This document shows positions 11,553 to 36,622 of a stretch of DNA of 64,000 nt, piece by piece. The notes below the pieces were generated by a model. The model saw only the letters and a program-made list of their open reading frames with translations, ran no database searches and was not told the origin of the DNA. The translations under genes were made by a program, and so were the position numbers. Within the stretch, counting starts at the first letter, position 1. Every line of letters starts with the position of its first letter. Origin of the DNA: Archangium sp. (lineage in GTDB: Bacteria > Myxococcota > Myxococcia > Myxococcales > Myxococcaceae); NCBI RefSeq assembly GCF_031412795.1, contig NZ_JANODR010000017.1, positions 64,001 through 128,000 on the forward strand, given 5' to 3'.

Positions 11553-11560
11553 GGCGGGCC

Positions 11561-13645
11561 TCAATGGGTGATGATCTTCGCCGGCGCGTCCTTGACGGCC
11601 GCGGGCAGCGCGTTGGCCAGCTGGTTGACGAGCGGCAACGACTCCTTGCCCTGCCACACGGCCGCCAGACGGGGCCGCCAGTAGGGGTTGAAGAAGTTGG
11701 GGTGCTCGGTCCAGTTGCCGGGCCGGTGGTAGTACGTCTGGCCGCGCGAGATGACGCTCATGCCCGAGGCCACGGAGAAGCCGGCGACCTCCAGCTTCTT
11801 GCGGTCGTTGTCCAGCTCCAGCGTCGCCGAGCCGCCGAAGTTGAAGGTGAGGCTCGAGCTGCCGTTGAGCCGGGACACGTCGTTGTGCGTGGCGCCCGTC
11901 GGATCGGCCCCCGTGTTGTGCAGCTCCTCCGAGTCCTTGTTGAGCATCACCCAGGCGGAGGGCTGGTTGAAGTCATGCTCGCGCTTGGCGGCCTGGTTGA
12001 TGCTGGCCTCGCCCTTCTTGGCCTGACCATTGTTGCAACTGCTGCACGAGCCGCCGCTGCCGCCGCCCGAGCTGTTGCCCCCCGGGTTGAGGCCCGCGCA
12101 GTCCCGCGCGTAGTCGCCCGGCTCGAAGTGGGGGAAGGGCGCCAGGCCCTCCCACGGGTGGTTGTTGTCCCGATCGTCGATGCGGACGTTGGCCGAGTAC
12201 ACATCCACCGAGAAGGGGCAGAGCCAGTCCGGCACGAAGGGGACCACGCACACCTCGTCCTTGTAGAGGCCCACGTTGGTGTCCGCCCTGCTGGCACCGC
12301 CGCTGTTCCTGAAGATGACCCGCCAGTGGATGCCGTTGCGGCGCAGATCCCTGTCGCTCATGGACCAGATGCTGGGCTTGAGCATGTCGTTGGGCTCCTC
12401 GCGCGGATCGCCCCAGCAGTGCCTGTAGTCGCGCTTGTCGTTGAGGATGCCTCCGGGCTCCTTGGGGCAGCTGAAGGGGTTGATCAGACCGATGTTGGAG
12501 GGGCCGATCTTGATGTAGTAGGTGTCGTCCGCGCCGATCACGTCACCCTGGGCCATCATGCCCATGGGGCTGCCGGGCGGATCGCGGTGCTCGCGGATCT
12601 TGTTGCGGCCCGTCCTGGGGCTCGCGGTGCCGTAGCCGAGCCGGTAGGTGAGCATGCGCGTCTGGCCCCACTTGGGGAAGCTGTTGAGCATGCTCTCCAG
12701 CGGCTGGAGCCAGCTGGGGATGGGCAGCAGGTCGCCCAGCTTGCGCGAGGTGACGAACGTCTCCGGGCAGATGCCCGAGCTGGCGTTGCAAGGGAAGCGC
12801 GTGGCGTTGCTGATGCCGCCCATCACGCGCTTGGCGCGCGAGACCTTGTCCCGCTCGTCGCGCTTGGTGGGATCCAGCGCGTCGAAGGGCTTGTACTTGC
12901 CCGTGAGCACCTGGCCGGGCGCGACGGTGGTCTCGTCGTAGTGCGTGCGGTTGAAGAGACACTGGTTGATGAGGCCCGCCAACGTCTGGGGGATGAACGA
13001 GTCCACGTGTGGATCGTTGGCCGCGATGATGGTGTTGGAGGTGCCCATCACGTAGGACGAGGAGGCCATCATCACCGCCACGGCCGCGCCTGACATGACG
13101 GCATTGAGCAGGCGATGGCCTGGGACCACCACCTTTCCGATGGCCCGGTCGATGAAGTCCATGCCCTGCTTCAGGAGGAGCAGCATCTTCTGGAGCACGG
13201 TGAAGATCGTGTTGATGACCCTCATCAGGGCTCCGATCCACGGCAAGACGTCCAGCACGGCGCAGATGATCTTCCATCTGCCCTTCCGGCTGTCCTTGGG
13301 GAAGCACGGGCCGATGGTGCGCATGAACCCGTAGATGTCCGTGAGGAAGGCCTGGACGAAGAAGATGAACGAGTTCAGCGACTGCCAGAGCATCGCCGAC
13401 ACGTAGTGCGACACCTGGGTGCGGTTGGTGAACGCGTAGAAGTTGAAGGCGCGCGCCTCCATGGCGGCCGTGGAGTAGGCCGCGGCGTCCGCCGTGTTCT
13501 GCAGGCGGATGCGCTCGTGCACGTTGTGCCCGATGTTGACGGTGGTGAGGAGCGCGATGCTCAGGATGAGCATCAGCAGACAGGCCATCACGAGCGCCTG
13601 TCCTTCCTGGCGCTGGAGGCTGCGACGAAGAGCGCGGGTCATCAT
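11561..13645 (-). CDS. TadG-like protein (Tad_N N-terminal domain), 694 aa, Cys-rich C-terminal region
   Basis: QEGQALVMACLLMLILSIALLTTVNIGHNVHERIRLQNTADAAAYSTA matches the Tad_N (TadG-like N-terminal) pattern. Gly/Ser/Cys-rich loop NSSGGGSGGSCSSCNNG. No VWA motif was recognised. Confidence 0.7.
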   Translation of the reverse strand: MMTRALRRSLQRQEGQALVMACLLMLILSIALLTTVNIGHNVHERIRLQNTADAAAYSTAAMEARAFNFYAFTNRTQVSHYVSAMLWQSLNSFIFFVQAFLTDIYGFMRTIGPCFPKDSRKGRWKIICAVLDVLPWIGALMRVINTIFTVLQKMLLLLKQGMDFIDRAIGKVVVPGHRLLNAVMSGAAVAVMMASSSYVMGTSNTIIAANDPHVDSFIPQTLAGLINQCLFNRTHYDETTVAPGQVLTGKYKPFDALDPTKRDERDKVSRAKRVMGGISNATRFPCNASSGICPETFVTSRKLGDLLPIPSWLQPLESMLNSFPKWGQTRMLTYRLGYGTASPRTGRNKIREHRDPPGSPMGMMAQGDVIGADDTYYIKIGPSNIGLINPFSCPKEPGGILNDKRDYRHCWGDPREEPNDMLKPSIWSMSDRDLRRNGIHWRVIFRNSGGASRADTNVGLYKDEVCVVPFVPDWLCPFSVDVYSANVRIDDRDNNHPWEGLAPFPHFEPGDYARDCAGLNPGGNSSGGGSGGSCSSCNNGQAKKGEASINQAAKREHDFNQPSAWVMLNKDSEELHNTGADPTGATHNDVSRLNGSSSLTFNFGGSATLELDNDRKKLEVAGFSVASGMSVISRGQTYYHRPGNWTEHPNFFNPYWRPRLAAVWQGKESLPLVNQLANALPAAVKDAPAKIITH

Positions 13646-13649
13646 GGGT

Positions 13650-14627
13650 TTACAGGCCCCAGCTGGGCTTCAGGTGCATCAGCCACTTGTAGTAGAAGTT
13701 CGACTGCATCCGCATGCTGTAGGTGGCCGTCAGCGGGATGAAGTAGCGCTTGCCGCCGATGAGGCCCGACAGGATGGGGATGTCCCCGCTGGCCACCGCC
13801 CACAGCACGGCCATCTCCACCTGGTAGAGCGTGTTGTAGCCGCGCTCGTGCCGGATGCCGCGGATGGGCACGAACTTCACCTGGCTCATGCCACCGCTGC
13901 GGTGGGTCATGCTCGTGTTGCGCTGGAGCGTGGGCCGGTCGATGGCGCCGTACAGCGACACCCCGGCGTTGGCCGCCCACCACGCGGTGAAGATGACCCA
14001 GTTGGCGAAGGGCACCTTCAGCTCGTACCAGTAGCGCAGGCGGATGCTCAGCACCGTGGCCTTGCGGTACGTCTCCTCGCCGTCGTCCGGAATCGACAGG
14101 TTGAAGAACTTGGCGATCTTCTGCTCCAGCTCCGGCACCTGCGGGTAGGCGTCCGGTCCGTCGAAGTCCAGCTCCTTCCAGTTGTAGCCCGTGCGCAGCT
14201 TCCACACGCTCCCGATGGAGTCGTACCAGGACGGGTTCACCGTATCGATGCGCACCTGGCCGAACAGGTTGGAGCCGTTGACGGTGGCCGGGATGATCCC
14301 GTTCTTGTTGGGCCACGCCAGCAGCTGCAGCGCCTCGTCATAGGCCTGGGCGATGGCCCACGTCTTTCCCAGCTCGAAGAGGGAGTCGGTGCGGCCCATG
14401 GTGGGCAGCAGCGCGATGATGGCGGCGTCCTTCATGCGCTCGTTGCTGCCGTTCCACACGATGCCCGTGCGCGCCGCGCTGTACGCCGCGTACTCGGTCA
14501 TGATCTTCGCGTGCTGCATCATCGTCAGCTGGATGATGCCCAGGCACATGAAGGTCATGAGCGGCAGCACCAAGGCGGATTCGACGGCGGCCTGACCTGA
14601 TTCCCTGGATTTGACGGGAGTAAGCAT
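13650..14627 (-). CDS. TadE-like minor pilin/pseudopilin (325 aa), first gene of the minus-strand operon
   Basis: ESGQAAVESALVLPLMTFMCLGIIQL is a TadE-like N-terminus. A 283-bp divergent intergenic region lies upstream. Confidence 0.7.
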   Translation of the reverse strand: MLTPVKSRESGQAAVESALVLPLMTFMCLGIIQLTMMQHAKIMTEYAAYSAARTGIVWNGSNERMKDAAIIALLPTMGRTDSLFELGKTWAIAQAYDEALQLLAWPNKNGIIPATVNGSNLFGQVRIDTVNPSWYDSIGSVWKLRTGYNWKELDFDGPDAYPQVPELEQKIAKFFNLSIPDDGEETYRKATVLSIRLRYWYELKVPFANWVIFTAWWAANAGVSLYGAIDRPTLQRNTSMTHRSGGMSQVKFVPIRGIRHERGYNTLYQVEMAVLWAVASGDIPILSGLIGGKRYFIPLTATYSMRMQSNFYYKWLMHLKPSWGL

Positions 14628-14774
14628 GGATGACGCTTTGTACCGACATTGTCACCTTCCAGGCATCGGTCAGGTGGACGCCACTGGAAGACGGCCGCTG
14701 AGCGGGGGACCAGGCCCGAAAAGGGGGTCCAACTCCAGGAAAACCAGAAAAGGCGTCAGGTTCGGGAAGCGCCT

Positions 14775-14802
14775 TTGACACCTGACATGACAGGTGGATA
14801 AC
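14775..14802 (+). promoter_or_regulatory. Candidate sigma-70-like promoter TTGACA-N16-GATAAC with embedded palindrome CACCTG-N6-CAGGTG, upstream of cpaB
   Basis: TTGACA at 14775-14780 and GATAAC at 14797-14802. The inverted repeat cacctgacatgacaggtg sits between them. Lies in the divergent intergenic region 14628-14910. Confidence 0.25.
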
Positions 14803-14910
14803 ATCGCACCCCGCTGGCGCCCAGGGCTCGCGCCACTCGTAACTCCGACACACCCAACGAGTTTCGCCGCCACCGCCTGGACGCCCCCCGCTTTTGGAGG
14901 TCCTCGAGAC

Positions 14911-15726
14911 ATGCTGAAGGGTAAGACTCCGCTCGTGATCGCTTTGGCGCTCGGCCTGTTGGCCGGCATCATCGCGTGGTCCGCCATCAAGAAGAAGGAG
15001 GCGGACGTGCGTCGTGGCTGGAACCTGGTGCCCGTGGTCGTGGCCTCCCAGGACATCCCCGAAGGCACCATCATCACCTTCGACATGATCAACCAGCGCT
15101 CGGTGCCCGAGCAGTTCGTCACCTCGTCGGTGGTGAAGCCGGAGTCGGCCACCTACGTGGTGGGGCAGAAGGTGCTGGTGGCGCTGCAGTCGGGAGATCC
15201 GCTGCTGTGGAGCCAGTTCGAGACCACGAAGGCCGCCGAGCGCCTGTCCACGCGCGTGCAGAAGAAGGTGCGCGCCGTCACGATCGAGGCCAAGTCCACC
15301 ACGTCGGTGGGCGGCTGGGTGCGTCCCAATGATCACGTGGACGTGGTCGGCACCTTCCGCGACCCGCAGACGGAGGAGCAGGTGGCGGTGACGCTGCTGC
15401 AGAACGTGATCGTCCTGGCCACGGGCAAGATCACCGGCACCACCAACGTCAACCTCATCCCGGAGAGCCAGCGCGAGTACAACAACATCACGCTGATGGT
15501 CATCCCGGAAGAGGCCGAAATCCTCATGCTGGCCACGGAGCTGGGCAACCTCACGCTCTCGCTGCGCAACGAGGAGGACGTGGACATGATCGAGGAGCGC
15601 GGCCGCGCCACCATCAGCACGCTGCTGTCCGGCGAGCGCACCCGCGTGCTCGAGCAGAAGCGTCGCGAGATCATCCAGATCATCAAGGGCAACGGCGAGA
15701 AGAGCGCCGGCGCGGGTCCCCAGTAG
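14911..15726 (+). CDS. cpaB: CpaB/RcpC-family Flp pilus assembly protein
   Basis: GGAGG lies 11 nt before the ATG. N-terminal TM LVIALALGLLAGIIAW, followed by a SAF-like segment and an RcpC beta-domain (GDPLLWSQF, VRPNDHVDVV). Confidence 0.8.
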   Translation: MLKGKTPLVIALALGLLAGIIAWSAIKKKEADVRRGWNLVPVVVASQDIPEGTIITFDMINQRSVPEQFVTSSVVKPESATYVVGQKVLVALQSGDPLLWSQFETTKAAERLSTRVQKKVRAVTIEAKSTTSVGGWVRPNDHVDVVGTFRDPQTEEQVAVTLLQNVIVLATGKITGTTNVNLIPESQREYNNITLMVIPEEAEILMLATELGNLTLSLRNEEDVDMIEERGRATISTLLSGERTRVLEQKRREIIQIIKGNGEKSAGAGPQ

Positions 15727-15770
15727 TAGTGGCCGTCTTCCTCCCCCGTCGCTGAAGGAAGTCCACGCGC

Positions 15771-16616
15771 ATGCTGGCCGGAATCGTTCTACTTCTCGTC
15801 ACCGGGTCGGTCTTCTTCTTCAGCCTGGTGATCTTCACCGTCCTGGCGAAGGCCTACGAGCAGTACCAGGAGCGGTACGTCGTCAAGTCGATGAACGACT
15901 TGAGCGACATGTTCCTGTTCGTGGATGCCCGGCAGTTGCTGGTGCTCAACATCGCCAGCATGTGCTTGATGGGCATCCTGTCGTACATCATCTTCAACCC
16001 CATCCTGTGCGTCATCGCCACGGTGTTCGGCTTCTTCCTGCCGATCATGCTGGTGAAGCACTACCGGGCGCGGCGCATCAAGCGCTTCAACGTGCAGCTG
16101 GTGGACGCGCTGCAGGCCATGGCCAACGCGTTCAAGGCGGGTCTGACCTTCCCGCAGGCCATCGAGCACGTGGCGCGCGAGGCGCAGCCGCCCCTGTCGC
16201 AGGAGTTCGGGCTCTTCGTGAAGGAAGTGAAGCTGGGCGTGCCGCTGGAGGAGGCCCTCATCAACATGGGCCGCCGGGTGGGCAGTGACGACCTGGAGCT
16301 GGTCGTGGTCGCCACCAACATCGCGCGCCAGCTGGGCGGCAACATGGCGGAGATGTTCGAGACCATCTCCAACGTCATCCGCGAGCGCTTCCGCCTCGAG
16401 GGGAAGATCGACGCGCTCACCTCCCAGGGCAAGCTGCAGGGGTGGGTGGTGGCGGCCATGCCGGCCATCCTCGGCATGGTGCTCAACTACATGCGGCCCG
16501 ACCTGATGGAGCCGATGATGGACCACTGGTTCGGCTACATCCTGGTGACGATCATCGCCATCATGGAAGTGCTGGGCGTGCTCATCATCCGGCGCATCGT
16601 CAACATCGATATCTGA
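15771..16616 (+). CDS. tadB: TadB-like inner-membrane platform protein (T2SS F family)
   Basis: T2SSF-type core LVDALQAMANAFKAGLTFPQAIEHVAREAQPPLSQEF flanked by N- and C-terminal TM helices. Confidence 0.8.
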   Translation: MLAGIVLLLVTGSVFFFSLVIFTVLAKAYEQYQERYVVKSMNDLSDMFLFVDARQLLVLNIASMCLMGILSYIIFNPILCVIATVFGFFLPIMLVKHYRARRIKRFNVQLVDALQAMANAFKAGLTFPQAIEHVAREAQPPLSQEFGLFVKEVKLGVPLEEALINMGRRVGSDDLELVVVATNIARQLGGNMAEMFETISNVIRERFRLEGKIDALTSQGKLQGWVVAAMPAILGMVLNYMRPDLMEPMMDHWFGYILVTIIAIMEVLGVLIIRRIVNIDI

Positions 16617-16625
16617 GGAGCTGTC

Positions 16626-17516
16626 GTGAGCGACGTCCTGACCTACATGTTGATGGGGGGCTCGGCGCTGATGTTCGCGGCGGCCGCGGGCTTCCTCGGC
16701 TTTGGCGTCTACCAGAACTACCTCGAGCGCTTCCTGTCGGAGGTGCGCGACGAGTCCGCTGGTGGCGTCAAGGGCCTGGGCTCGGTCACCATCCGCAAGC
16801 TGGGGGTGATCAACCGCAAGCTGATGTGGCCCGGCTACGAGTCCAAGGTGCGCCGCAACCTCATCAAGGCCGGCGAACCCGATGGCTTCAAGCCCGAAGA
16901 CATCATGGCGATGCAGGAGATCAGCGCCGTGGTGGGCCTGCTGGCGGGCCTCATCCTGGTCAACGGGATTGGCGAGAACCTCGGCTGGTCGCTGCTCTTC
17001 GCCCTGTTCGGCATGTACTACCCGCTCATCTGGGTGAGCGATCAGGTGAAGAAGCGCCACCTGCAGATCTCCCGGGCGCTGCCCTACAGCCTGGACCTGC
17101 TGACGCTGTCGGTGGAGGCCGGTCTGGACTTCACCGCGGCGCTGGCCAAGGTGGTGGAGAAGGGCAAGGCGGGCCCGCTGCGCGAGGAGCTTCAGATCGT
17201 CCTCAAGCAGCTCAAGATGGGCAAGACGCGCGAGGAGTGCCTCAAGGCGATGATCGCCCGGGTGGACCTGGCGCCGCTCACCACCTTCGTCACCGCGCTC
17301 ATCCAGGCGGACAAGATGGGCACCAGCCTTGGCAAGGTGCTGCGCATCCAGTCCACGCAGCTGCGCATCGACCGCACCCAGCGCGCGGAGAAGCTCGCGG
17401 GCGAAGCGCCGGTGAAGATGCTCTTCCCGCTCATCGCCTGCATCTTCCCCACGGTGTTCATGGTGCTCTTCGGCCCCATCGTGTTCCAGTTCATGTTCGG
17501 AAACGTCGGCGGGTAG
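16626..17516 (+). CDS. tadC: TadC-like inner-membrane platform protein (T2SS F family)
   Basis: GTG start with GAGGAG upstream. LPYSLDLLTLSVEAGLDFTAAL T2SSF core. C-terminal TM helices. Confidence 0.8.
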   Translation: MSDVLTYMLMGGSALMFAAAAGFLGFGVYQNYLERFLSEVRDESAGGVKGLGSVTIRKLGVINRKLMWPGYESKVRRNLIKAGEPDGFKPEDIMAMQEISAVVGLLAGLILVNGIGENLGWSLLFALFGMYYPLIWVSDQVKKRHLQISRALPYSLDLLTLSVEAGLDFTAALAKVVEKGKAGPLREELQIVLKQLKMGKTREECLKAMIARVDLAPLTTFVTALIQADKMGTSLGKVLRIQSTQLRIDRTQRAEKLAGEAPVKMLFPLIACIFPTVFMVLFGPIVFQFMFGNVGG

Positions 17517-17522
17517 TGCTCC

Positions 17523-19154
17523 GTGGGCTGCCTGCTCACCATCTCCAAGGGGCTGCAGCAGGGGAGGGAGTACACCTTCGAGCAGCCCGAGCTGCACATC
17601 GGGCGCACCCCGGAGAACGACCTGGTGCTCCAGGATACCGGGGTGTCGCGCCAGCACGTGCGCATCTCGGAGCGCATGGGGCGCTACTACGCCCAGGACA
17701 TGGGCAGCTCCAATGGCACCCGGCTCAACGACGCGCCCCTCATCGGGGAGCGCGCGCTGAATGACGGGGACCGGCTCGCGTTGGGCGCCGCGGAGCTCGT
17801 CTTCAAGGAAGTGGTGAGCGACGAGGACGCCACCCGGCCCATGATGACGGTGAGCCCGGTGGTCGAAGACGACGCCACCCGCCCCATCAAGACGATGCGC
17901 CCGGTGGTACCGGTGGAAGAAGACGACGCCACCCGCCCCATCCGACGCAACCCCACTGGCGTCTCCTCGCTCGCGGCGGTGGAGCCCTCGGGCCCCCCGG
18001 TCCTGCACCCCGTGGACAAGGCTCCGGCTTCCGGCGGAGCGGGGGGCGCCCGCAGGGCGACGATGGGGCAGATGCCGCTCCCGCCGCCAGTGCCCCCTCC
18101 CGCGGCCCTGGCCCGGCCCGAGCCTCGCGCTCCCGCCCTCGTCGATGACGAGGCCCCCACGACGGCTCCCGTTGGCAAGTCCGAGTCCGCTCCCGCGTCC
18201 CCGGGCCTGTCCGCCGCGGACAAGGCCCGGCGTCGGCGCGAGCGGGGCGCCACGCTCGCGGGCCAGTTCTCGCTCTGGTGGTCCGAGCTGTCCGGAGCGG
18301 GGAAGGGCGTGCTGCTCGCCCTGGCGTGCTGCTTCGTGCTGGGCACGGCGGTGGCGCTCGAGGTCGTCTTCCGCCCCTCGGCGGGCGAGCAGGCGACCAC
18401 GGGTCCAGAGCCCACGGTGCTGGGCCTCCAGGTGGTGCCGGACTCGTTCGGCCTGGGCAACGACGTGAAGTGGTCCCAGCCGGACCTGAAGACCTTCGAC
18501 TTCGAGTTCGTCTCGCCCACCCGCGCCGTGGTGGTGGTGCGCTACCAGGCCAGCGGCATCTCCAAGGACGAGGTCTCCGTCTCCATCAACGCGGTGCCCG
18601 TGGGCTTCATCCCCGCCGACACCATCAATGCCTCGGAGCGGGAGGTGCAGCAGATCCTCTCTCCGGCTGTGCTCAAACGAAATGAGCGCAACCAGCTCGT
18701 CTTCGACAACGTGCACAACCCCCCCGGCCGTAACGGCTGGCGGGTGTGGAACCTGAAGCTGGAGATCATCCCCGTGCCGGAGCTGCCTCCGGAGAAGCTG
18801 CTGGAGACCGCGCGCGACTACGCGGCCCAGGCCCGCGCGTACTACGATCAGCGCGAGGTGGGTGCCGAGAACCTCTTCCGCTCCTGGGAGAGCTTCCGCT
18901 CGGCGTGGATCACCCTGGAGGCCCTGGACGAGAAGCCGGACCTCTACCAGGATGTGCGCTACATGCTGGGCCAGGTGGCGGTGGACCTGGACCACAAGTG
19001 CGGGCAGTTGATGCTGGATTTCAAACGGAACATCCAGTTCAAGGACAGGAAGCGGGCAGCCGCGGCACTGGCCAACGTCAAGACGCACTTCCCTACAGCG
19101 GCGCATCGCTGCCACAATCTGGCGGTCGAAAAAGCCAACGAGTACGGGCTGTAA
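17523..19154 (+). CDS. FHA-domain bitopic membrane protein with DDATRP repeats and ~280-aa C-terminal domain of unknown function
   Basis: N-terminal FHA domain (LHIGRTPENDLVLQDTGVSRQHVRI...SSNGTRLN). TM VLLALACCFVLGTAVALEVVF. The GTG start lies 7 nt after the tadC stop. Confidence 0.75.
   Translation: MGCLLTISKGLQQGREYTFEQPELHIGRTPENDLVLQDTGVSRQHVRISERMGRYYAQDMGSSNGTRLNDAPLIGERALNDGDRLALGAAELVFKEVVSDEDATRPMMTVSPVVEDDATRPIKTMRPVVPVEEDDATRPIRRNPTGVSSLAAVEPSGPPVLHPVDKAPASGGAGGARRATMGQMPLPPPVPPPAALARPEPRAPALVDDEAPTTAPVGKSESAPASPGLSAADKARRRRERGATLAGQFSLWWSELSGAGKGVLLALACCFVLGTAVALEVVFRPSAGEQATTGPEPTVLGLQVVPDSFGLGNDVKWSQPDLKTFDFEFVSPTRAVVVVRYQASGISKDEVSVSINAVPVGFIPADTINASEREVQQILSPAVLKRNERNQLVFDNVHNPPGRNGWRVWNLKLEIIPVPELPPEKLLETARDYAAQARAYYDQREVGAENLFRSWESFRSAWITLEALDEKPDLYQDVRYMLGQVAVDLDHKCGQLMLDFKRNIQFKDRKRAAAALANVKTHFPTAAHRCHNLAVEKANEYGL
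17820..17948 (+). repeat. Three tandem coding repeats D(E/D)DATRP(M/I)xT(V/M)xPVV inside the FHA protein gene
   Basis: gacga(g/c)gacgccacccg(g/c)ccc recurs three times at about 45-nt spacing. Confidence 0.6.
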
Positions 19155-19192
19155 GGTCCGGGCTCGAGCACGAAATGAAGTGGTGATCTGCC

Positions 19193-21007
19193 ATGTCGAA
19201 CGGTTCTCCCCCCACCCGTCGTCGCCCGACCTCGACCAACAGCTCGGCCGCGGGTTCCACCGACCCGCGCCCCGCGGTGCGCAAGACGGCCGCCGCGCCG
19301 GCCGTTCGGGAGCCTGTCCCGGTGCTGGGCACCAAGCTGGTGGTGTCCGCCGGCCCTCAAGCCGGTGCGGAGTTCGGGCTGGAGGATGGCGAGTACGTCA
19401 TCGGTCGCGCCAACGACAACCCCATCTGCATCCCGGACACCTCGGTGTCGCGCAAGCACGTGCTGGTGCGCCGCGTGGGCGGGGGCTGGGCGGCCAGCGA
19501 CCTGGGCTCCGGCAACGGCACCCTCATCAACGGCGAGCCCATCACCGATGAGGTGCCGCTGTCCCACGGCGACGTGCTCACGCTGGGCGACACGGAGGTG
19601 ACGTTCAACGACACCTCCAACGCCACGATGATGATGCCGATGCCCTCGGCGCCTCCGTCGCGTCCGGCCCGGGGTGGCTCGCGTCCCTCCGCTCCCGCCG
19701 CCGCTGCCGCTGCTCCCGCCGAGGCCGAGGAGGGGGGCGAGGCCGGTGGTGCTCCGCGTCGTCCGCCGCCCCGTCCCGAGTCCCGCGTGCGCCCGGGTCG
19801 TGGGGGTCGCGGTGCCGCCGCGCCGGATCCGGCGGCGCAGCAGCGCAAGAAGCGCCTGCTCATCCTCACCGCGGCCGTCTTCGTGATGCTCGTGGGCCTG
19901 CTGGCCATCATCAAGTCCAAGCAGCAGGAGGAGGCCGCGGCCCAGCTCGCCGCGGCGAAGGTCGCCCAGGAAGCGCGTGCTCAGCTCGCCGCCCTCTTCC
20001 AGGACGCCAAGAACCTCATCCGCGAGAACAAGTGGAAGGACGCCAAGGCGAAGCTGCTGGAGCTCCAGGAGGCCGATCCCGAGTACGTGCAGCTCGAGGA
20101 CTACCTGGCGCGCGTGGACAAGGAGATTCCCAACCAGGATGCGCTCGACGAGGCCAAGGCGGCGCTGGACAAGAACCAGCTCGGCCCGGCGGCGTCCGCG
20201 GTCAACAAGGTGGCCAAGGACACCCAGCTCTTCGAGCAGGTGCGCCTCGTGAAGCTGGGCCTCAAGGAGAAGGCCGACAAGCGCGTGCGGGAGGCCCAGG
20301 CGCTGATGGATCAGAAGCAGCTGGATCAGGCCAAGCTCGTCGTGGATGACGTGCTCGTCGCCGACCCCGAGCACCGCGATGGCAAGGTCATCTCCGAGCA
20401 GGTCAATGCCGCCATCGAGCTGCGTGATCGGCCCGCGCCCGTGGACCGCGGGCCCGCGCCCGTCCATCCGTGGGATCAGGCCGTGGACCGCTTCCGGGAT
20501 GGAGATCTCCAGGGCGCGGTGGCCATCGTCAACGCCTGCGCGGGCAAGAAGCCGCAGTGCAAGACGCTCATGGGCCAGATGACGGACTTCGGCAACCTCT
20601 ACAAGAAGCTGGAGGACCTGGACGCCAAGGGCCTGGGGCGGCTGCTGGACCTGGACAAGAAGATCACCAACGGTCGCGGTAGCAGCAAGATGGCGCGCAA
20701 CGCCGGAACGCGTGCCTCCAACATCTTCTTCCGCAGCGCCTCGGCGGCCAAGGCGTCCGGCCAGTACGGGCGCGCCATGGAGAACGCCCAGCGCGCCCTC
20801 CAGGCGGACCCCAGCCACGTCGGCGCCAACAACATCGCCAACGAGCTGCGGCAGAAGGCCAAGGACATCTACCTCCAGGCCTACACCATCCGCGAGAGCG
20901 ATCCCCAGGACGCCCTGCCCAAGTTCCGCGAGGCCATGAGCATGACCACGCCGGAGGACGAGACGTACCAGAAGGCCAAGTCGTGGATCGAGAAGCTCGA
21001 GCGATGA
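19193..21007 (+). CDS. FHA-domain bitopic membrane protein with Pro/Ala-rich linker and long helical/TPR-like C-terminal domain
   Basis: FHA domain (YVIGRANDNPICIPDTSVSRKHVLV...GSGNGTLINGEPI). TM LLILTAAVFVMLVGLLAII. The C-terminus is rich in helical repeats. Confidence 0.75.
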   Translation: MSNGSPPTRRRPTSTNSSAAGSTDPRPAVRKTAAAPAVREPVPVLGTKLVVSAGPQAGAEFGLEDGEYVIGRANDNPICIPDTSVSRKHVLVRRVGGGWAASDLGSGNGTLINGEPITDEVPLSHGDVLTLGDTEVTFNDTSNATMMMPMPSAPPSRPARGGSRPSAPAAAAAAPAEAEEGGEAGGAPRRPPPRPESRVRPGRGGRGAAAPDPAAQQRKKRLLILTAAVFVMLVGLLAIIKSKQQEEAAAQLAAAKVAQEARAQLAALFQDAKNLIRENKWKDAKAKLLELQEADPEYVQLEDYLARVDKEIPNQDALDEAKAALDKNQLGPAASAVNKVAKDTQLFEQVRLVKLGLKEKADKRVREAQALMDQKQLDQAKLVVDDVLVADPEHRDGKVISEQVNAAIELRDRPAPVDRGPAPVHPWDQAVDRFRDGDLQGAVAIVNACAGKKPQCKTLMGQMTDFGNLYKKLEDLDAKGLGRLLDLDKKITNGRGSSKMARNAGTRASNIFFRSASAAKASGQYGRAMENAQRALQADPSHVGANNIANELRQKAKDIYLQAYTIRESDPQDALPKFREAMSMTTPEDETYQKAKSWIEKLER

Positions 21008-22722
21008 AGAAGCGGCGAGGCACGGGAGAGGCCCCGCCGGCACCTCCCGCCGGACAGGGAGACCTCTTCGGCGGTGTGCTCAAGGTCGTGGCGGCCTCGA
21101 AGCCGCCGCCCGAGCCTCCTCCCGCGCCGGCGCCACCCCCGGCCCCCTCGGAGCTGAAGGACGTCTCCGGGGCCCTGCCGTCGCTGCCCGGCGCCCCCCC
21201 GCGCACGGCGCCCACGCGCACGGTGCTCACCGTGGGCGAGCTCACGCAGCAGCTCAAGCAGACGATTGAGTCCCGCTTCCCGCGCGTGCTGGTGCGCGGC
21301 GAGGTGTCCGGCTTCCGCGGCGCCAACGCGCGCGGCCACCTGTACTTCACGCTCAAGGACGCGGAGGCCTCGCTCGACGTGAAGATGTGGGCCTCGCAGG
21401 CGGCGCGGCTGCGCTTCCAGCTGCGCGATGGCCTGGCCCTGGTGGCCGAGGGCAGCGTGGACGTGTACTCGCCCGCCGGCCGCTACAGCCTCATCGCCCA
21501 CCGGCTGGAGCCGGAAGGGGAGGGGGCGCTGGCCCTCGCCTTCGAGCAGCTCAAGGAGCGGCTCGCCGCCGAGGGCCTCATTGGCGACAACCGCGTCCGC
21601 CCGCCACGCCCGCTGCCCTCACTGCCCCGGCGCATCGGCGTGGTGACGAGCCGCACCGGCGCGGCCCTCCAGGACTTCCTGCGCGTGTTGCACTCGCGCC
21701 ACCCGCGCCTGTCCGTGCTGCTGTGCGACGCGCGCGTGCAGGGCGAGGGCTCCGCCGAGGAAGTGGCTCGCGGGATCGAACGCCTGTCGCGCACGGACGT
21801 GGATGTCATCGTCGTCACCCGTGGCGGTGGCTCGAAGGAAGACCTCTGGACGTTCAACGAGGAGCGGGTGGCGCGCGCCATCTTCGCCTGCCCGGTGCCG
21901 GTGGTGTCCGCCATCGGTCATGAGATCGACTTCACCATCTCGGACTTCGTGGCGGACTGGCGCGCCGCCACCCCGAGCGCCGCGGCGGAGCGGCTGGCCC
22001 CCGTGCTCCAAGATTTGGAGTACGACCTGGCCACCCAGAAGGTGCGCCTGCGCAAGGCCATCGAGCACCAGGTGCTGGAGCTGCGCGAGGAGCTGAACTC
22101 CCTCGGTGGAGAGCTGGAGGATCCGCGGCGGCGGCTGTCCACGGAGCGGCTGCGGCTGTCGGATGCCGAGGACGCGATGACGCGCGTGCTGCGTCAGGTG
22201 CTGCGCGAGCGGCGCGAGCAGCTCAAGGCGCACGCCGAGCACCTCCAGCGCCAGCGTCCCCAGGTCCGGCTGGCCGAGCAGCGGGCGCGGCTGGTGCAGC
22301 TCTCCAGCCGGCTCAAGGACGCGATGCGCGCGGACGTAGCGGCCCGGCGAGCCAAGGCGGCCCAGGCCCAGCTGGGGCTGGAGCGTGTCTCCCCGGCGGC
22401 CCGGGTGGCGGAGCTGCGCGCCCGACTGGCCGACCGGAAGGCCCGGCTGGTCGCCCGGCAGAAGGACATCCTGGCGTCCGCCCAGCGACACTTCCAGGGG
22501 CTAGAAGGGCGGCTGGACGCCTTGAGTCCCCTCAAGGTGATGTCCCGTGGCTACGCCGTCACCTTCCGCAAGCAGGACGGGGGCGTGGTGCGCTCCATCT
22601 CCGACGTGAAGCCCGGCGAGGTGCTCGGCATCAAGTTCGCCAGCAACGGGGCGAAGTCCCTCCAGGGATGCGAGGAGATCGAGGCCACTGTTACCGCCGT
22701 GAAGGGACCGGTGGATTGCTGA
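21004..22722 (+). CDS. xseA: Exodeoxyribonuclease VII large subunit
   Basis: OB-fold N-terminus and catalytic core (VVTSRTGAALQDFLRVL, VIVVTRGGGSKEDLWTFNEE, SAIGHEIDFTISDFVAD). ATG 21004 overlaps the TGA of the FHA gene (ATGA). Confidence 0.85.
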   Translation: MKKRRGTGEAPPAPPAGQGDLFGGVLKVVAASKPPPEPPPAPAPPPAPSELKDVSGALPSLPGAPPRTAPTRTVLTVGELTQQLKQTIESRFPRVLVRGEVSGFRGANARGHLYFTLKDAEASLDVKMWASQAARLRFQLRDGLALVAEGSVDVYSPAGRYSLIAHRLEPEGEGALALAFEQLKERLAAEGLIGDNRVRPPRPLPSLPRRIGVVTSRTGAALQDFLRVLHSRHPRLSVLLCDARVQGEGSAEEVARGIERLSRTDVDVIVVTRGGGSKEDLWTFNEERVARAIFACPVPVVSAIGHEIDFTISDFVADWRAATPSAAAERLAPVLQDLEYDLATQKVRLRKAIEHQVLELREELNSLGGELEDPRRRLSTERLRLSDAEDAMTRVLRQVLRERREQLKAHAEHLQRQRPQVRLAEQRARLVQLSSRLKDAMRADVAARRAKAAQAQLGLERVSPAARVAELRARLADRKARLVARQKDILASAQRHFQGLEGRLDALSPLKVMSRGYAVTFRKQDGGVVRSISDVKPGEVLGIKFASNGAKSLQGCEEIEATVTAVKGPVDC

Positions 22723-22805
22723 CGTCCGGGTGCACGTCCCCCTGGCACCCAGGCCCGCCACTCCTCTAGAGTCCCCCGGCTTTTTCTCGTCGAGGTGGAC
22801 CGGAA

Positions 22806-23159
22806 GTGGCGAAGGACAGCAAGGGCAAGGCGGCGGAGGAGGTCCCCGAGCAGTACGGGGACGTGGTGCAGCGTCTGGAGGACGTGGTGGCGCGGCTGGA
22901 GGGCGGCACCCTGACACTCGAGGAGTCACTCAAGTCATTCGAGGAGGGCATCAAGCTGGTGCGCCGGGGCGAGCAGCTCCTCAACACGGCGGAAAAGCGC
23001 ATCGAGGAACTGTTGAACGAAGACGGTCGGGACGTGGTGGTGCCACTGCAGACGGGCGTGAAAGCCCCGACGGTGCCCTCCGTTCCGGCTCCGACCGCTC
23101 GGGGGAGCTCGGGTTCGTCTCGCACCACACCTCCCCCCGAGGATGACGTGCCGTTCTAG
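22806..23159 (+). CDS. xseB: Exodeoxyribonuclease VII small subunit with Pro/Ser-rich C-terminal extension
   Basis: YGDVVQRLEDVVARLEGGTLTLEESLKSFEEGIKLVRRGEQLL is the XseB helical hairpin. GTG start. Confidence 0.7.
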   Translation: MAKDSKGKAAEEVPEQYGDVVQRLEDVVARLEGGTLTLEESLKSFEEGIKLVRRGEQLLNTAEKRIEELLNEDGRDVVVPLQTGVKAPTVPSVPAPTARGSSGSSRTTPPPEDDVPF

Positions 23160-23188
23160 CTCCTCGTGAGTAGACCTGCCGGTGCACC

Positions 23189-23578
23189 ATGCCGAAGCCC
23201 AAGGTCACCATCGTCGACGACGACCGCGATACCCGCGAGATGCTCTCTTTCGCCCTGGAGTCGGACGGGTTCGAGGTCAACGCCGCGGCCAACGGGCTGC
23301 GGTTGATCTCCTCCCTGCAGCTCCAGCGGCCGGACGTCATCCTCATGGACGTGAACATGTCCTGGATCGACGGTTTCGAACTGTGCAAGGCGGTGAAGAA
23401 GAACGAGCAGTTCCGAGACATCCCCGTCATCTTCATCAGTGGACGCGGAGATGCCGAGGACAGGCGGCGCGGGCTGGAGGCCGGCGCCGCGGACTATCTA
23501 GTGAAGCCGTTGGATCTCACCGCGCTCATCGAGCGTCTGCGAGAGCTGATTCCATCGGCCGCATCCGAGGTACCCTGA
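23189..23578 (+). CDS. Single-domain response regulator (CheY-like receiver)
   Basis: VTIVDDDRDTREM..., phospho-acceptor context ILMDVNMSWIDG, GADDYLVKP-like (AADYLVKP). Confidence 0.85.
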   Translation: MPKPKVTIVDDDRDTREMLSFALESDGFEVNAAANGLRLISSLQLQRPDVILMDVNMSWIDGFELCKAVKKNEQFRDIPVIFISGRGDAEDRRRGLEAGAADYLVKPLDLTALIERLRELIPSAASEVP

Positions 23579-23579
23579 C

Positions 23580-24470
23580 ATGGCGTCTTTCGATCTCGAG
23601 TCGTACCTGCGGACCCAGGTGGAGCGCGTGGAGGGCCTGCTGCGCTCGCGCTCCGATGAGCTGGGCACGGGCGTGCCGCCGCGCCTCTTCGAGTCCATGC
23701 GCTACTCGCTGCTGGCCGGTGGCAAGCGGCTGAGGCCAGTGCTGTGCCTGGCCTTCGGCGAGGCCGTGCTGCGCCAGAGCAGTGTCCCCCGCGTGGTGGA
23801 GGACTGCGCGTGCGCGCTCGAGTTCATCCACACCTACTCGCTCATCCATGACGACCTGCCGGCCATGGACGACGACGACATGCGCCGTGGACGGCCCACC
23901 AACCACAAGGTGTACGGCGAGGCCATGGCCATTCTGGCCGGTGACTCGCTGCTCACGGACGCCTTCGCCCTGGTGGCCGGAGGCCCGGAGCCGGTGCGCG
24001 GCATGCTCTGCCGGGAGCTGGCCGTGGCCTCGGGCTCGGCGGGCATGGTGGGGGGCCAGGTGTTGGACATCGCCGAGGACCGTCCGGCCCAGATTGACTA
24101 CCTCACGCGCATGCACCGCCTGAAGACGGGCGCCCTCATCCGCGCCGCGTGCCGCATGGGCGTCATCGCCGCCGGTGGGGACGCGGACGCGCTGGCCCGC
24201 GCGGACACCTACGGGGACGCGGTGGGGCTGGCCTTCCAGATTGCCGACGACGTGCTGGACGTGACGGGGGATGCCTCCGCCATGGGCAAGGCCGTGGGCG
24301 CGGACGCCGCCGCCGGACGCTTCACCTTCCCTGCGGTGCTGGGACTGGAGGAGTCCAAGCAGCTCGCGGCGCGCAAGGTGGCCGAGGCCATCGACGCCGT
24401 GAAGACGTTGGAGCCGAAGGACGGCCCGCTGGCGGCGCTCGCGCGCTACTCGGTGGAGCGCCGCTCGTGA
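23580..24470 (+). CDS. ispA: Polyprenyl (farnesyl/geranyl) diphosphate synthase
   Basis: First and second Asp-rich motifs LIHDDLPAMDDDDMRRG and FQIADDVLD. Confidence 0.85.
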   Translation: MASFDLESYLRTQVERVEGLLRSRSDELGTGVPPRLFESMRYSLLAGGKRLRPVLCLAFGEAVLRQSSVPRVVEDCACALEFIHTYSLIHDDLPAMDDDDMRRGRPTNHKVYGEAMAILAGDSLLTDAFALVAGGPEPVRGMLCRELAVASGSAGMVGGQVLDIAEDRPAQIDYLTRMHRLKTGALIRAACRMGVIAAGGDADALARADTYGDAVGLAFQIADDVLDVTGDASAMGKAVGADAAAGRFTFPAVLGLEESKQLAARKVAEAIDAVKTLEPKDGPLAALARYSVERRS

Positions 24471-26224
24471 TGGAGCGGCTCCTGCCGCGCATCCAATCTC
24501 CCGGCGACGTCCGGGCGCTTCCGGAGTCAGAGCTGCCTCGCCTGTGCGAGGAGCTGCGTGAGGACATCGTCTCCCTGTGTGGCCGCGTGGGCGGCCACCT
24601 GGGGGCCTCGCTGGGCGTGGTGGAGCTCGTCGTCGCCCTGCACCGCGTCTTCCACTCGCCCCAGGACGCACTCGTCTTCGACGTGGGGCACCAGGCCTAC
24701 GCGCACAAGCTGCTGACGGGCCGGCGCGAGCGCATGGGCACGCTGCGTCAGGCGGGCGGTGTGGCGCCCTTCCTGGATCCCCGCGAGAGCCCTCACGACG
24801 CGCTGGCCGCGGGCCATGCGAGCACCGCCGTCTCCGCGGCGCTGGGCATGCTCCAGGGCAAGCGGCTGCTCGGGCAGCCCGGGCACGTGGTGGCGGTGGT
24901 AGGGGATGGGGCGCTCACGGGTGGGCTCACCTTCGAGGGCCTCAACAACACCGGGGGCATGCACCTGCCGCTGGTGGTGGTGCTCAACGACAACCAGATG
25001 TCCATCTCCGCCAACGTGGGCGCCATCCCCGCGTTGCTGCGCACGCACGAGGCCCGTGCCTTCTTCGAGGCGCTGGGCTTCACCTACCTGGGGCCGGTGG
25101 AGGGGCATGACCTCGGGGCAATAACCCGGGCGTTGCGCGAGGCCCGCGCCTCCTCGCGCCCGGTGGTGGTGCACGCGCTGACGCAGAAGGGCAGGGGCTT
25201 TCCCCCGGCCGAGGCGGACATTCAGACGCGCGGCCACGCCATGGGGCCCTACGAGTGGCGGGACGGCAAGCTGGTGCGCTCGCGCGGAGGCCAGCGCACC
25301 TTCAGCGAGGCCTTCGCGGCCGTGCTGGATGACGCCATGGCCCGGGACTCGCGCGTGGTGGCGGTGACGCCGGCCATGCTGGAGGGCTCGGCGCTGGTGG
25401 GCCTCGAGCTGCGCTACCCCGAGCGCGTCTTCGACGTGGGCATCGCCGAGTCTCACGCCGTCACCTTCTGCGCGGGACTGGCCGCCGCGGGGCTGCGGCC
25501 CGTGTGCTCCATCTACTCCACCTTCCTCCAGCGCGCGTATGACCAGGTCATCCACGACGTGTGCCTGCCGGGCCTGCCGGTGATGTTCGCCGTGGACCGG
25601 GCCGGACTGGTGGGCGCGGACGGCGCCACGCACCAGGGCACCTATGACGTGGCCTCGCTGCGCCCCGTGCCGGGCCTCACGATGATGGCCCCGGTGGTGG
25701 GGGAGGACCTCCCGGCGATGTTCGCCACCGCCCTGGCGCTGCCGGGGCCCTCGCTCCTTCGCTTCCCTCGCGGCACCCTGCCGACGATGCCCGCCGAGCT
25801 GCACCCGGGCCAGGGTCCGGTGAAGGGGGCCCGCTGGTTGAAGCGCGCGGAGCAGGCGCGGATGTGCTTCATCACCCTCGGGCCGCTGGCGCTCAATGCC
25901 CTGGAGGCCGCTGCCTCGGAGCCGGACTGGAGCGTGCTGGACGCGCGCTTCGTGTCCCCGCTCGACGAGGTCGCGGTGTTGGAGGCCGCCGCGTGCGGGC
26001 GCGTGGTGGTGGTGGAGGAGGGGACGACGCATGGCGGGCTGGGCAGCGCGGTGCTGGAGCTGCTCGCCGCGCGGGGGGTGAGTGCCCGCGTGAGGCTGCT
26101 GGGCATGCCGGACACCTTCGTGCCCCACGGGGACGCGCGCGTGCAGCGGGCCGAGCTGGGCCTGGATGCCGCGGGCCTGCGGCGGACCGCCCGGGCCCTG
26201 CTCTCCGAGGGAGGGGCACCGTGA
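24470..26224 (+). CDS. dxs: 1-deoxy-D-xylulose-5-phosphate synthase
   Basis: DVGHQAYAHKLLTGRR, thiamine-diphosphate-binding GDGALTGG..NDN, transketolase-like C-terminus. The ATG overlaps the ispA stop by 1 nt. The upstream part of the 691-aa ORF in the track is rejected. Confidence 0.9.
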   Translation: MERLLPRIQSPGDVRALPESELPRLCEELREDIVSLCGRVGGHLGASLGVVELVVALHRVFHSPQDALVFDVGHQAYAHKLLTGRRERMGTLRQAGGVAPFLDPRESPHDALAAGHASTAVSAALGMLQGKRLLGQPGHVVAVVGDGALTGGLTFEGLNNTGGMHLPLVVVLNDNQMSISANVGAIPALLRTHEARAFFEALGFTYLGPVEGHDLGAITRALREARASSRPVVVHALTQKGRGFPPAEADIQTRGHAMGPYEWRDGKLVRSRGGQRTFSEAFAAVLDDAMARDSRVVAVTPAMLEGSALVGLELRYPERVFDVGIAESHAVTFCAGLAAAGLRPVCSIYSTFLQRAYDQVIHDVCLPGLPVMFAVDRAGLVGADGATHQGTYDVASLRPVPGLTMMAPVVGEDLPAMFATALALPGPSLLRFPRGTLPTMPAELHPGQGPVKGARWLKRAEQARMCFITLGPLALNALEAAASEPDWSVLDARFVSPLDEVAVLEAAACGRVVVVEEGTTHGGLGSAVLELLAARGVSARVRLLGMPDTFVPHGDARVQRAELGLDAAGLRRTARALLSEGGAP

Positions 26225-26964
26225 AGCCCCGCAAGGAGCGCCTCGACGTGCTGGTGGTGGAGCGGGGGCTCGCCGAGTCCCGGACCAAGGCCCAGGCGCT
26301 CATCCTCGCCGGACAGGTGGTGGTGGGGGACCAGCGGGTGGACAAGCCCGGCGCCCTGGTGCCCGTGGAGTCGGAGCTGCGCCTCAAGGGCGAGGTGCTG
26401 CCCTACGTGTCTCGCGGTGGGCTGAAGCTGAAGGCCGCCATGGACAAATTCGGCCTGGACGTGCGCGGCAAGGTGGCCGCGGACATCGGCGCCAGCACCG
26501 GCGGCTTCACTGACTGCCTCCTGCAAGAGGGCGCCACACACGTCCACGCCATCGACGTGGGCTACGGCCAGCTCCACGAGAAGCTGCGCACGGATCCGCG
26601 CGTCCGCTCCCGCGAGCGGGTGAATGCCCGCTACCTCACCGCCGAGGACCTCCCCGAGTCCGTGGAGGTGGTGGTCATCGACGTGAGCTTCATCTCGCTC
26701 ACGCAGGTGCTGCCGGCGGTGCTGCCCTACCTGAAGCCCGGGGGCCTGCTGATCGCGCTGGTGAAACCCCAGTTCGAGGTAGGCCCGGACAGGGTGGGCA
26801 AGGGCGGCGTGGTGCGGGACGTGGCCGCGCGCCAGGAGGCCATCGACTCCGTCTCCGCCTTCGTGCGGGAGCAGGGCCTCTCGGTGCGTGGGGTGATGGA
26901 CTCGACCGTGCCCGGCCCCGCCGGCAACGTCGAGGCGCTGCTCGTCGCGGACAAACCCGTGTAA
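26221..26964 (+). CDS. tlyA: TlyA-family rRNA 2'-O-methyltransferase (S4 domain + FtsJ-like methyltransferase)
   Basis: RLDVLVVERGLAESRTKAQALILAGQV (S4), DIGASTGGFTDCLLQEGA (SAM binding). GTGA overlap with dxs. Confidence 0.85.
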   Translation: MKPRKERLDVLVVERGLAESRTKAQALILAGQVVVGDQRVDKPGALVPVESELRLKGEVLPYVSRGGLKLKAAMDKFGLDVRGKVAADIGASTGGFTDCLLQEGATHVHAIDVGYGQLHEKLRTDPRVRSRERVNARYLTAEDLPESVEVVVIDVSFISLTQVLPAVLPYLKPGGLLIALVKPQFEVGPDRVGKGGVVRDVAARQEAIDSVSAFVREQGLSVRGVMDSTVPGPAGNVEALLVADKPV

Positions 26965-30728: not shown

Positions 30729-30912
30729 GGCGGCCGAGTATACGCTGGGGGATCTTCCTCACAATTCTTGCCCAGACCCGTCGAGTCCGACACGCTGGCC
30801 CCCAGCCGGCTTAGGCTGGCATGATTACTTCGCGCATGAAGGTTGACGCTTTCTTGAAAACTTTCCGGTCTCCCCATACCCCCGTCCAAGGCTCGGCAGC
30901 ACGAGGTCTCCA

Positions 30913-33414: not shown

Positions 33415-33436
33415 CCGCCGAGTTAGACTCGGCGGC

Positions 33437-36165: not shown

Positions 36166-36228
36166 CGTAGGTTCGATTTCCTTACAGAGCAAACTTCGAT
36201 TCTCGAGGGCGCTTCCGAGGGTCACCGC

Positions 36229-36573: not shown

Positions 36574-36622
36574 ACGGGCCCCGCGGCCCGCTTAAACCCT
36601 TCGGGAGGGGTGGACAACACTC

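Follow-up and report, generated by a model that had tools for sequence, protein, structure and literature searches.

The closest described relatives of the locus analyzed here belong to cluster II of the Kil system of Myxococcus xanthus, a Tad pilus machine for the killing of prey in which the products of MXAN_4652, MXAN_4651 and MXAN_4650 have been named KilB, KilG and KilH (Seef et al., 2021, eLife, PMC8460266). The two genes that follow were left nameless and without a function: in Supplementary file 1 of that study, MXAN_4649 is entered as "FHA domain" with an HHpred match to PrgH, and MXAN_4648 as "FHA domain; tetratricopeptide repeat" (PMC8460266). The same authors proposed that the FHA proteins of the kil clusters form a contact-triggered phospho-signalling cascade, which they likened to the type VI secretion system (T6SS) of Pseudomonas, and this proposal was repeated in a 2023 review and in a 2025 review (PMC12428579). 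The M. xanthus equivalent of the locus has been predicted to belong to an operon of 20 genes (2026 preprint). Here, we describe the corresponding locus in a 64,000 nt stretch of the genome of Archangium sp. (contig NZ_JANODR010000017.1, positions 64,001 to 128,000, G+C content about 70%; hereafter, the window), in which two genes, designated FHA1 and FHA2, directly follow the platform genes tadB and tadC of a Tad machine. Both open reading frames (ORFs) are present at the coordinates listed in Table 1, with a coding-type G+C content at third codon positions (GC3) of 0.90–0.91; the local gene map combines a GC3-based gene call with Pfam matches.

In identity and architecture taken together, FHA1 and FHA2 are almost certainly the orthologues of MXAN_4649 and MXAN_4648, respectively. 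They are 47% and 52% identical to the genes at the same positions in M. xanthus AM003 (locus L024), and their full-length relatives (90–100% coverage) in Myxococcus, Corallococcus, Archangium, Stigmatella and Hyalangium show identities of 42–91% for FHA1 and 50–93% for FHA2. Both find their closest relatives among the FHA-domain proteins of Archangium, Cystobacter, Myxococcus, Corallococcus, Stigmatella and Hyalangium. As in Kil cluster II, the pair stands between kilB-kilG-kilH and xseA, and the domain calls are the same as well (FHA for the first protein, FHA plus TPR for the second), whereas the block of minor-pilin genes is inverted in the Archangium-like window relative to Myxococcus. The interpretation in terms of phospho-signalling has already been published for the M. 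xanthus orthologues, and its emergence from the window is a rediscovery in an Archangium-like genome. The two proteins appear to make up a conserved pair of membrane-spanning accessory proteins of the Kil Tad machine, not a new kind of system. What is new here is the five-gene cassette to which they belong, the exclusion of membership in the SctD and TagH families, the description of the outer domain of FHA1, and two threonine motifs that offer testable sites.

A scan that included one genome per species yielded 50 loci, all with myxobacterial titles except for two generic metagenome-assembled genomes (L014, an uncultured delta proteobacterium, and L015, a Proteobacteria bacterium) and one record labelled "Comamonas" (L012). 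Synteny was assessed by searching these loci with twelve proteins of the window (tblastn). Every contig of sufficient length, including that of M. xanthus AM003, keeps the order cpaB-tadB-tadC-FHA1-FHA2-xseA-response regulator-ispA-dxs. Across the related loci, TadB is 88–98% and TadC 78–94% identical, and the identity of CpaB is 74–91% in nearly all of the loci that carry it, with 71% in L014. When the outer domain of FHA1 was used in an exhaustive HMMER search, 355 cluster representatives passed E ≤ 1e-3, and 201 passed E ≤ 1e-10; identities went down to 28%. An N-terminal FHA domain was found in all ten of the distant relatives tested. All three distant metagenomic loci examined (L051–L053; 28–32% identity in the outer domain) have the arrangement RcpC-T2SSF-T2SSF-FHA1-FHA2, and in two of them, L051 and L052, no xseA gene was called downstream of the FHA pair within the locus. 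Because the three distant loci keep the five genes and two of them have no called xseA, cpaB-tadB-tadC-FHA1-FHA2 is a conserved cassette encoding the inner-membrane part of a Kil-type Tad machine, and the adjacency of xseA is a lineage-specific feature of its neighbourhood.

A preliminary description of the window, made from the sequence alone, had placed the FHA pair directly after tadB-tadC, which is borne out, the upstream order being cpaB-tadB-tadC by Pfam. The gap between tadC and FHA1 was given there as 7 nt and measures 6 nt (the TAG of tadC ends at 17516 and the GTG of FHA1 starts at 17523). Between FHA1 and FHA2 lie 38 nt, and the ATGA overlap between FHA2 and xseA is present as described, with the ATG at 21004 and the TGA at 21005–21007. 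The genes tadC and FHA1 share a reading frame, with only the TAG and two codons between them (17514–17525), and the gap is of similar length in orthologous loci, with no sign that read-through is of importance. The pair had also been called terminal in its operon, which is not supported: genes on the same strand run on through xseA, xseB, a response regulator gene, ispA and dxs. Because no terminator-like site was found on the plus strand from 14500 to 26500, FHA1 and FHA2 are the last pilus-related genes of the array but probably do not end the transcript. The overlap with xseA and the run down to dxs without a terminator-like site could also mean that the FHA pair is functionally part of the housekeeping block xseA-xseB-ispA-dxs and unrelated to the pilus. 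This is most improbable, because L051 and L052 keep the pair behind RcpC-T2SSF-T2SSF with no xseA called downstream within the locus, and because in other bacteria xseA/xseB-ispA-dxs is a common block that contains no FHA genes.

Both proteins match the Pfam FHA domain (PF00498) with 59.6 bits (FHA1) and 65.9 bits (FHA2), compared to a cut-off of 20.7, in agreement with the original domain assignment, and they match Yop-YscD_cpl (PF16697) with 63.4 and 68.6 bits, respectively, compared to a cut-off of 33.2. These matches cover aa 8–96 of FHA1 and aa 53–140 of FHA2. The residues of the phosphothreonine (pThr) pocket, Gly-Arg, Ser-Arg-x-His and Asn-Gly-Thr, are present in both families, and in alignments of 35 sequences most of them are invariant or nearly so, the full set being invariant in FHA2. 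In a profile alignment, the pocket aligns residue for residue with that of GarA (E 6e-15). The family profiles match GarA, OdhI, FhaA (Rv0020c), EmbR and Rv1747 at E-values of 1e-11 to 1e-17 (1e-16 to 1e-17 for FHA2 with GarA and FhaA), whereas YscD was not found at E ≤ 1 in the searches of the PDB with these profiles. Both FHA domains are canonical and are predicted to bind pThr, and they resemble those of GarA, FhaA and DgcB more than that of YscD. Whereas the residues of the pThr pocket are intact in FHA1 and FHA2, they have disappeared from the FHA-like domains of YscD and PrgH; a degenerate FHA domain of the YscD type was rejected by the pocket residues, by sequence ranking and by structure ranking.

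Membership in described families was assessed with the NCBIfam models for TagH, SctD, FhaB, OdhI and GltG, all of which scored far below their cut-offs. SctD (YscD/PrgH) has the same order of parts as the pair, namely a cytoplasmic domain of the FHA fold, one transmembrane (TM) segment and a periplasmic domain, and the PF16697 threshold is passed. However, SctD has three ring-building motifs, in place of which FHA1 has a beta-sandwich plus a helical bundle and FHA2 a TPR-like domain, and the partner here is a Tad pilus. The SctD model TIGR02500 gave 23.8 bits for both proteins (cut-off 86), there are no periplasmic ring-building motifs, and the neighbours are Tad and housekeeping genes, not a type III secretion cluster. 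The TagH model TIGR03354 gave 64.8 bits for FHA1 (cut-off 120.25), restricted to the FHA region and the linker, and no match for FHA2; no T6SS genes were found among the window ORFs scanned. With both models below cut-off, the analogies to YscD and TagH drawn in the preliminary description do not extend to family membership. The likeness to Fha1/TagH of the Pseudomonas aeruginosa T6SS with its PpkA-PppA pathway of threonine phosphorylation, the analogy drawn by the Kil authors, consists in an FHA protein associated with a contact-firing envelope machine, whereas the C-terminal domains differ and the cassette has no kinase or phosphatase in its cluster. GarA/OdhI and DgcB of Bdellovibrio differ in being soluble regulators of metabolism or of cyclic di-GMP (c-di-GMP), not membrane proteins of a pilus, and the OdhI model gave 48.6 bits for FHA1 and 57.5 bits for FHA2 compared to a cut-off of 200. 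GltG, from the Agl-Glt gliding machine of M. xanthus, is also a bitopic inner-membrane protein with a cytoplasmic FHA domain in an envelope-spanning machine; the GltG model matched the two proteins weakly (23.9 and 37.3 bits, cut-off 650), and only in the FHA region and the adjoining linker. GltG carries a TonB-C-like periplasmic domain, and no such domain was found in FHA1 or FHA2.

The main rival explanation is a phospho-independent scaffold. The pair would form an alignment or ring subcomplex around TadB and TadC, a functional analogue of PilN/PilO of type IVa pili or of SctD. In it, the ATPase would be held by the FHA domains, acting solely as protein-protein modules, and CpaB or the short, N0-less secretin would be contacted by the outer domains. 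Such a role would fit the fixed position right after the platform genes in every locus and the scores of both proteins above the Yop-YscD_cpl threshold, and several canonical Tad assembly proteins are missing from Kil (Seef et al., 2021, PMC8460266). However, the invariance of the pThr-pocket residues across the families would be unexpected if phosphate were never bound, and the domains match GarA and FhaA at 1e-15, whereas YscD did not appear in the same searches. We consider the scaffold possible but doubtful.

Each of the two proteins has a single hydrophobic helix with basic residues on its N-terminal side and no signal peptide, and the FHA domain is located N-terminally of the TM segment; invariant cysteine pairs are confined to the C-terminal domains of both. 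In FHA1, the sole strongly hydrophobic 19-residue window (aa 263–281, Kyte-Doolittle 2.43) coincides with a long helix of the AlphaFold2 (AF2) model (aa 258–283) and has the basic stretch KARRRRER on its N-terminal side. The sole such window of FHA2 (aa 222–240, Kyte-Doolittle 3.05) is flanked on its N-terminal side by QQRKKR, with four Lys or Arg residues in the preceding 15 residues versus two after it. Because the FHA domains are N-terminal, lack a signal peptide and precede a single TM segment with basic residues on its N-terminal side, they are predicted to be cytoplasmic, and we strongly infer from sequence and model that both proteins are N-in bitopic inner-membrane proteins. The bitopic arrangement that had been put forward earlier is retained as a prediction, periplasmic FHA domains not being predicted for either protein.

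The full-length AF2 model of FHA1 comprises an FHA sandwich (aa 1–97) with a predicted local distance difference test score (pLDDT) of about 90, a disordered stretch (aa 102–227), two short helices (aa 231–255), the membrane helix and a confidently modelled C-terminal domain. In the juxtamembrane region, A231, A232, A235, R236, R239 and G247 are invariant in the alignment. Modelled alone (pLDDT 85, predicted TM-score (pTM) 0.80), the C-terminal domain folds into a beta-sandwich of seven strands and, behind it, a bundle of five helices. This outer domain belongs to no Pfam family and had no sequence relative in the PDB in a profile search, and the structure search with it revealed no ring-building motif of SctD/PrgH. 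Its residues C493 and C530 are invariant among 35 orthologues, which fits a periplasmic location. Conservation in FHA1, calculated as the mean majority fraction per region in the 35 orthologues, is 0.75 for the beta-sandwich, 0.74 for the helical bundle, 0.73 for the juxtamembrane helix (S-A-A-[DE]-[KR]-A-R-x-R-R), 0.67 for the FHA domain, 0.48 for the TM segment and 0.35 for the linker. Conservation of the predicted periplasmic regions that is no lower than that of the FHA domain would be consistent with a scaffold, whereas outer domains without ring-building motifs argue against it. The FHA1 orthologues of Corallococcus (P0092, P0093, P0108) have lengths of 900–950 aa, and in the Corallococcus loci L031–L033, L036, L038–L040 and L042 about 1.9 kb lie between tadC and the conserved outer domain, a distance suggesting that the disordered linker has expanded greatly.

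In Foldseek searches, the beta-sandwich of FHA1 matched CBM6, CBM35, domain III of Cry toxins, the collagen-binding domain of ColG and PPC domains at E-values of 1e-3 to 1e-5, all partial matches with low TM-scores (TMq 0.24–0.31). The resemblance to carbohydrate- and ligand-binding modules such as the first four would be in line with an outside-in contact sensor, in which the CBM-like and TPR-like parts of FHA1 and the TPR domain of FHA2 would detect a periplasmic cue arising from prey contact, such as a perturbation of the cell wall or envelope or the condition of the secretin or of CpaB. The signal would pass through the membrane, and the FHA domains would, as output, recruit KilD and KilF. 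Conservation of the outer domain is high, and the domain is specific to the family; clusters of KilD form on contact even without a working Tad machine, so that a sensor upstream of it is needed (Seef et al., 2021, PMC8460266). Nevertheless, the structural matches are generic as well as partial, ligand-binding residues cannot be named, and a single, poorly conserved TM segment would be a weak conduit for a signal unless oligomerization changes, which makes the sensor decidedly unlikely. The sandwich (query residues about 12–120) also matches five times each in two much larger proteins, P0379 (929 aa) and P0382 (1763 aa), and thus occurs as a repeated module in other architectures, too.

FHA2 starts with a conserved peptide (M-S-N-G-S-P-P-x-R-R-R-P), its linker is rich in Pro, Ala and Arg, and about 360 helical residues follow the TM segment. 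The C-terminal part matches TPR families of Pfam in many orthologues and, weakly, TPR_8 in the window protein, and positions 485–533 of the family profile match PDB entries of consensus TPR proteins. FHA1 and FHA2 were rejected as full-length paralogues, their likeness being limited to the FHA domains, which are 40% identical.

Short threonine motifs accompany the FHA domains of both families. The FHA1 family was sampled with 63 representatives (50% identity clusters) that have a recognizable N-terminal FHA domain, and the expected numbers were obtained from shuffled linkers. Within 90 aa after the FHA domain, T-[RQ]-x-[IVFLM] is present in 37 of the 63 representatives versus 2.5 expected, and the strict form [ASGPV]-T-R-[ILPM]-[IVFLM] in 20 versus 0.7 expected. 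Counted from the N-G-T of the pocket, the motif has a median offset of 40 residues, and distant members of the family have S-T-R-I-V or S-T-R-I-F. The FHA2-type motif, N-[AS]-T-[MV]-x-hydrophobic, was found in 105 of 116 relatives and is double in two orthologues. In the window it follows the FHA domain, whereas in L051 it is located before the FHA domain (N-A-T-M-V-F), and in L052 it occurs there twice (N-S-T-V-L-F and E-S-T-V-L-F). Because the threonine and the hydrophobic residue at +3 are kept while position and copy number change, the motif behaves as a short linear motif, not as an element of the fold. Durocher et al. are said to have found in 2000 that the residue selected at pT+3 by many FHA domains is hydrophobic, and GarA/OdhI and DgcB of Bdellovibrio are switched by a phosphorylated tail that binds to the FHA domain. 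We regard the threonine motifs as the strongest new argument for a possible phospho-regulation of the pair.

The preliminary description had also stated that the window contains no kinase gene, and indeed the catalytic loop of Hanks-type kinases is absent from all six frames, and no Pkinase or PP2C match to Pfam was found among the window ORFs scanned. In 53 related loci (930 kb), a single kinase-like match was present, in one locus and 8 kb away. On the basis of these searches, a dedicated kinase was rejected as a member of the cassette, and any kinase must be encoded elsewhere. Myxobacteria possess very many kinases (PMC2887360).

In the explanation that we prefer, the FHA1/FHA2 pair would act as a transmembrane adaptor beside TadB and TadC. 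A Hanks-type kinase encoded elsewhere would phosphorylate threonines of the linkers, and the resulting pThr-x-x-hydrophobic sites would be read by FHA domains, be it the protein's own, that of its partner, or those of the ATPase KilF and of KilD. Phosphorylation might thereby decide on the recruitment of the motor and of accessory proteins to the platform or, alternatively, on the release from auto-inhibition, and the periplasmic domains would link the platform with CpaB, with the secretin or with the cell wall. As a whole, comprising identity, architecture and adaptor mechanism, we assign this explanation a probability of roughly 0.55. Phospho-gating taken by itself, for which sequence features and analogies speak, has about an even chance. 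Gating by Ser/Thr kinase signalling, as originally suggested, is plausible in view of the intact pockets, the strong FHA matches, the predicted cytoplasmic location and the threonine motifs.

Several observations weigh against the adaptor mechanism. No kinase or PP2C phosphatase was found linked to the cassette in the window and the 53 related loci, which also speaks for the scaffold. FHA domains can work without phosphate, and the threonine motif could be a docking site for a partner that is not an FHA protein. The predicted topology is derived from hydropathy, charge bias and the AF2 helix. For MXAN_4649 and MXAN_4648, the literature search revealed no reported mutant, localization, function or phospho-site. 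Specifically, no deletion mutant of either gene is reported in the searched literature, so that a requirement of the pair for Kil function is putative. An even more far-reaching reading, which we regard as unlikely, is that FHA1 and FHA2 mark off a "Kil-type" subclass of Tad machines that is distinct and conserved over great distances. Assembly at the contact site would, in this subclass, be nucleated by a pThr-FHA network, and the periplasmic domain of FHA1 would sense prey contact. The [D/N]-[A/S]-T-x-x-hydrophobic sites may, in that case, be phosphorylated and bound by the FHA domains of FHA1, FHA2, KilF, KilD and MXAN_3104.

Table 1. Genes of the FHA1/FHA2 locus and features of the two encoded proteins (positions in the window).
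Feature	Position	Strand	Evidence and remarks
cpaB/rcpC (KilB orthologue), cassette gene 1	14794..15726	+	Pfam RcpC 84.9 bits, SAF; TIGR03177 CpaB 196.6 bits (cut-off 71)
tadB (KilG orthologue), inner-membrane platform protein	15771..16616	+	Pfam T2SSF 65.6 bits
tadC (KilH orthologue), inner-membrane platform protein	16626..17516	+	Pfam T2SSF 65.3 bits
FHA1, MXAN_4649 orthologue (almost certainly), 543 aa, GTG start	17523..19154	+	FHA, disordered linker, TM, periplasmic domain (predicted)
FHA1, FHA domain, aa 8-97	17544..17813	+	Pocket residues R28, S42, R43, H45, N64, G65, T66
FHA1, [DE]-D-A-T-R-P-[IM], three copies, aa 101-107, 116-122, 134-140	17823..17942	+	Candidate phospho-Thr sites; pLDDT below 50
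FHA1, basic juxtamembrane helix (aa 229-257, S-A-A-D-K-A-R-R-R-R-E...L-W-W) and TM helix (aa 258-283)	18207..18371	+	
FHA1, periplasmic domain (predicted), aa 295-543	18405..19151	+	Beta-sandwich about aa 322-417; TPR-like five-helix bundle aa 423-540
FHA2, MXAN_4648 orthologue (almost certainly), 604 aa	19193..21007	+	N-terminal peptide, FHA, linker, TM, coiled-coil/TPR-like periplasmic domain (predicted)
FHA2, FHA domain, aa 46-140	19328..19612	+	R72, S86, R87, H89, N108, G109, T110 invariant
FHA2, N-A-T-M-M-M, aa 143-148	19619..19636	+	Candidate phospho-Thr site; T145 invariant
FHA2, TM segment, aa 219-241	19847..19915	+	Hydropathy; RKKR on the cytoplasmic (predicted) side
FHA2, periplasmic (predicted) helical/TPR-like domain, aa 242-604	19916..21004	+	TPR matches; C449, C456 invariant
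xseA, housekeeping neighbour, outside the machine	21004..22722	+	Pfam Exonuc_VII_L 359 bits
xseB	22806-23159	+	
Single-domain response regulator, 129 aa	23189-23578	+	Between xseB and ispA
ispA	23580-24470	+	dxs next
Three TadE/TadG-like minor pilin genes	10410-11657, 11561-13645, 13650-14627	-	Pfam TadE and Tad; divergent from the cassette

The neighbourhood of the cassette shows additional shared and lineage-specific features. The three minor-pilin genes were also found in related loci. They are divergent from cpaB in the window, Archangium and Vitiosangium (comparison of the window with L011–L029), and on the same strand as cpaB in Myxococcus, Pyxidicoccus and Hyalangium, with about 2.5–4.5 kb of other sequence in between; the pilin block is inverted between lineages. 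On the minus strand, the region 7855–10419, located 3' of the pilin block, contains the candidate ORFs 7855–8616, 8613–9632 and 9643–10419, none of which has a Pfam match and the last two of which also have no NCBIfam match; the GC3 call favours 9643–10569 together with an alternative frame, 8825–9865, over the first two ORFs. The minus-strand ORFs of this region may be further uncharacterized genes of the Kil cluster. The response regulator gene is present in every sufficiently long locus of Myxococcaceae/Archangiaceae, and in the distant locus L053 it is absent, with xseB directly followed by ispA. The "Comamonas" record, L012 (BNCN01000007.1, Comamonas sp. KCTC 72670), is collinear with the Myxococcus loci and nearly equals them in percent identity to the window proteins; it is probably mislabelled or contaminated.

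Further away from the cassette, all on the plus strand, two adjacent genes (782–1597 and 1598–2752) encode proteins in which MshEN (58.5 and 55.7 bits) is the sole domain. In the ATPases of type II secretion systems and type IV pili, MshEN is located at the N-terminus and binds c-di-GMP; an ATPase domain is absent from both window proteins. A hybrid histidine kinase with the architecture GAF-HisKA-HATPase-receiver and a weak GGDEF match (30847–33414) is followed by a gene for a 655 aa protein with multiple TPRs (33344–35311), and two bactofilin genes are arranged in tandem (36166–36573 and 36596–36949). Among the entries of the Kil table of M. xanthus is MXAN_4639, a TPR protein encoded close to cluster II (Seef et al., 2021, PMC8460266).

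How the assembly of Kil is confined to the site of prey contact is a question to which the candidates of the field are FHA proteins. FHA1 and FHA2 are the sole FHA proteins of the Kil system that are predicted to span the membrane, and they accompany the platform genes far beyond Myxococcus. Their FHA pockets, the two short conserved motifs and the separable periplasmic domain of FHA1 offer handles for experiments on this question.

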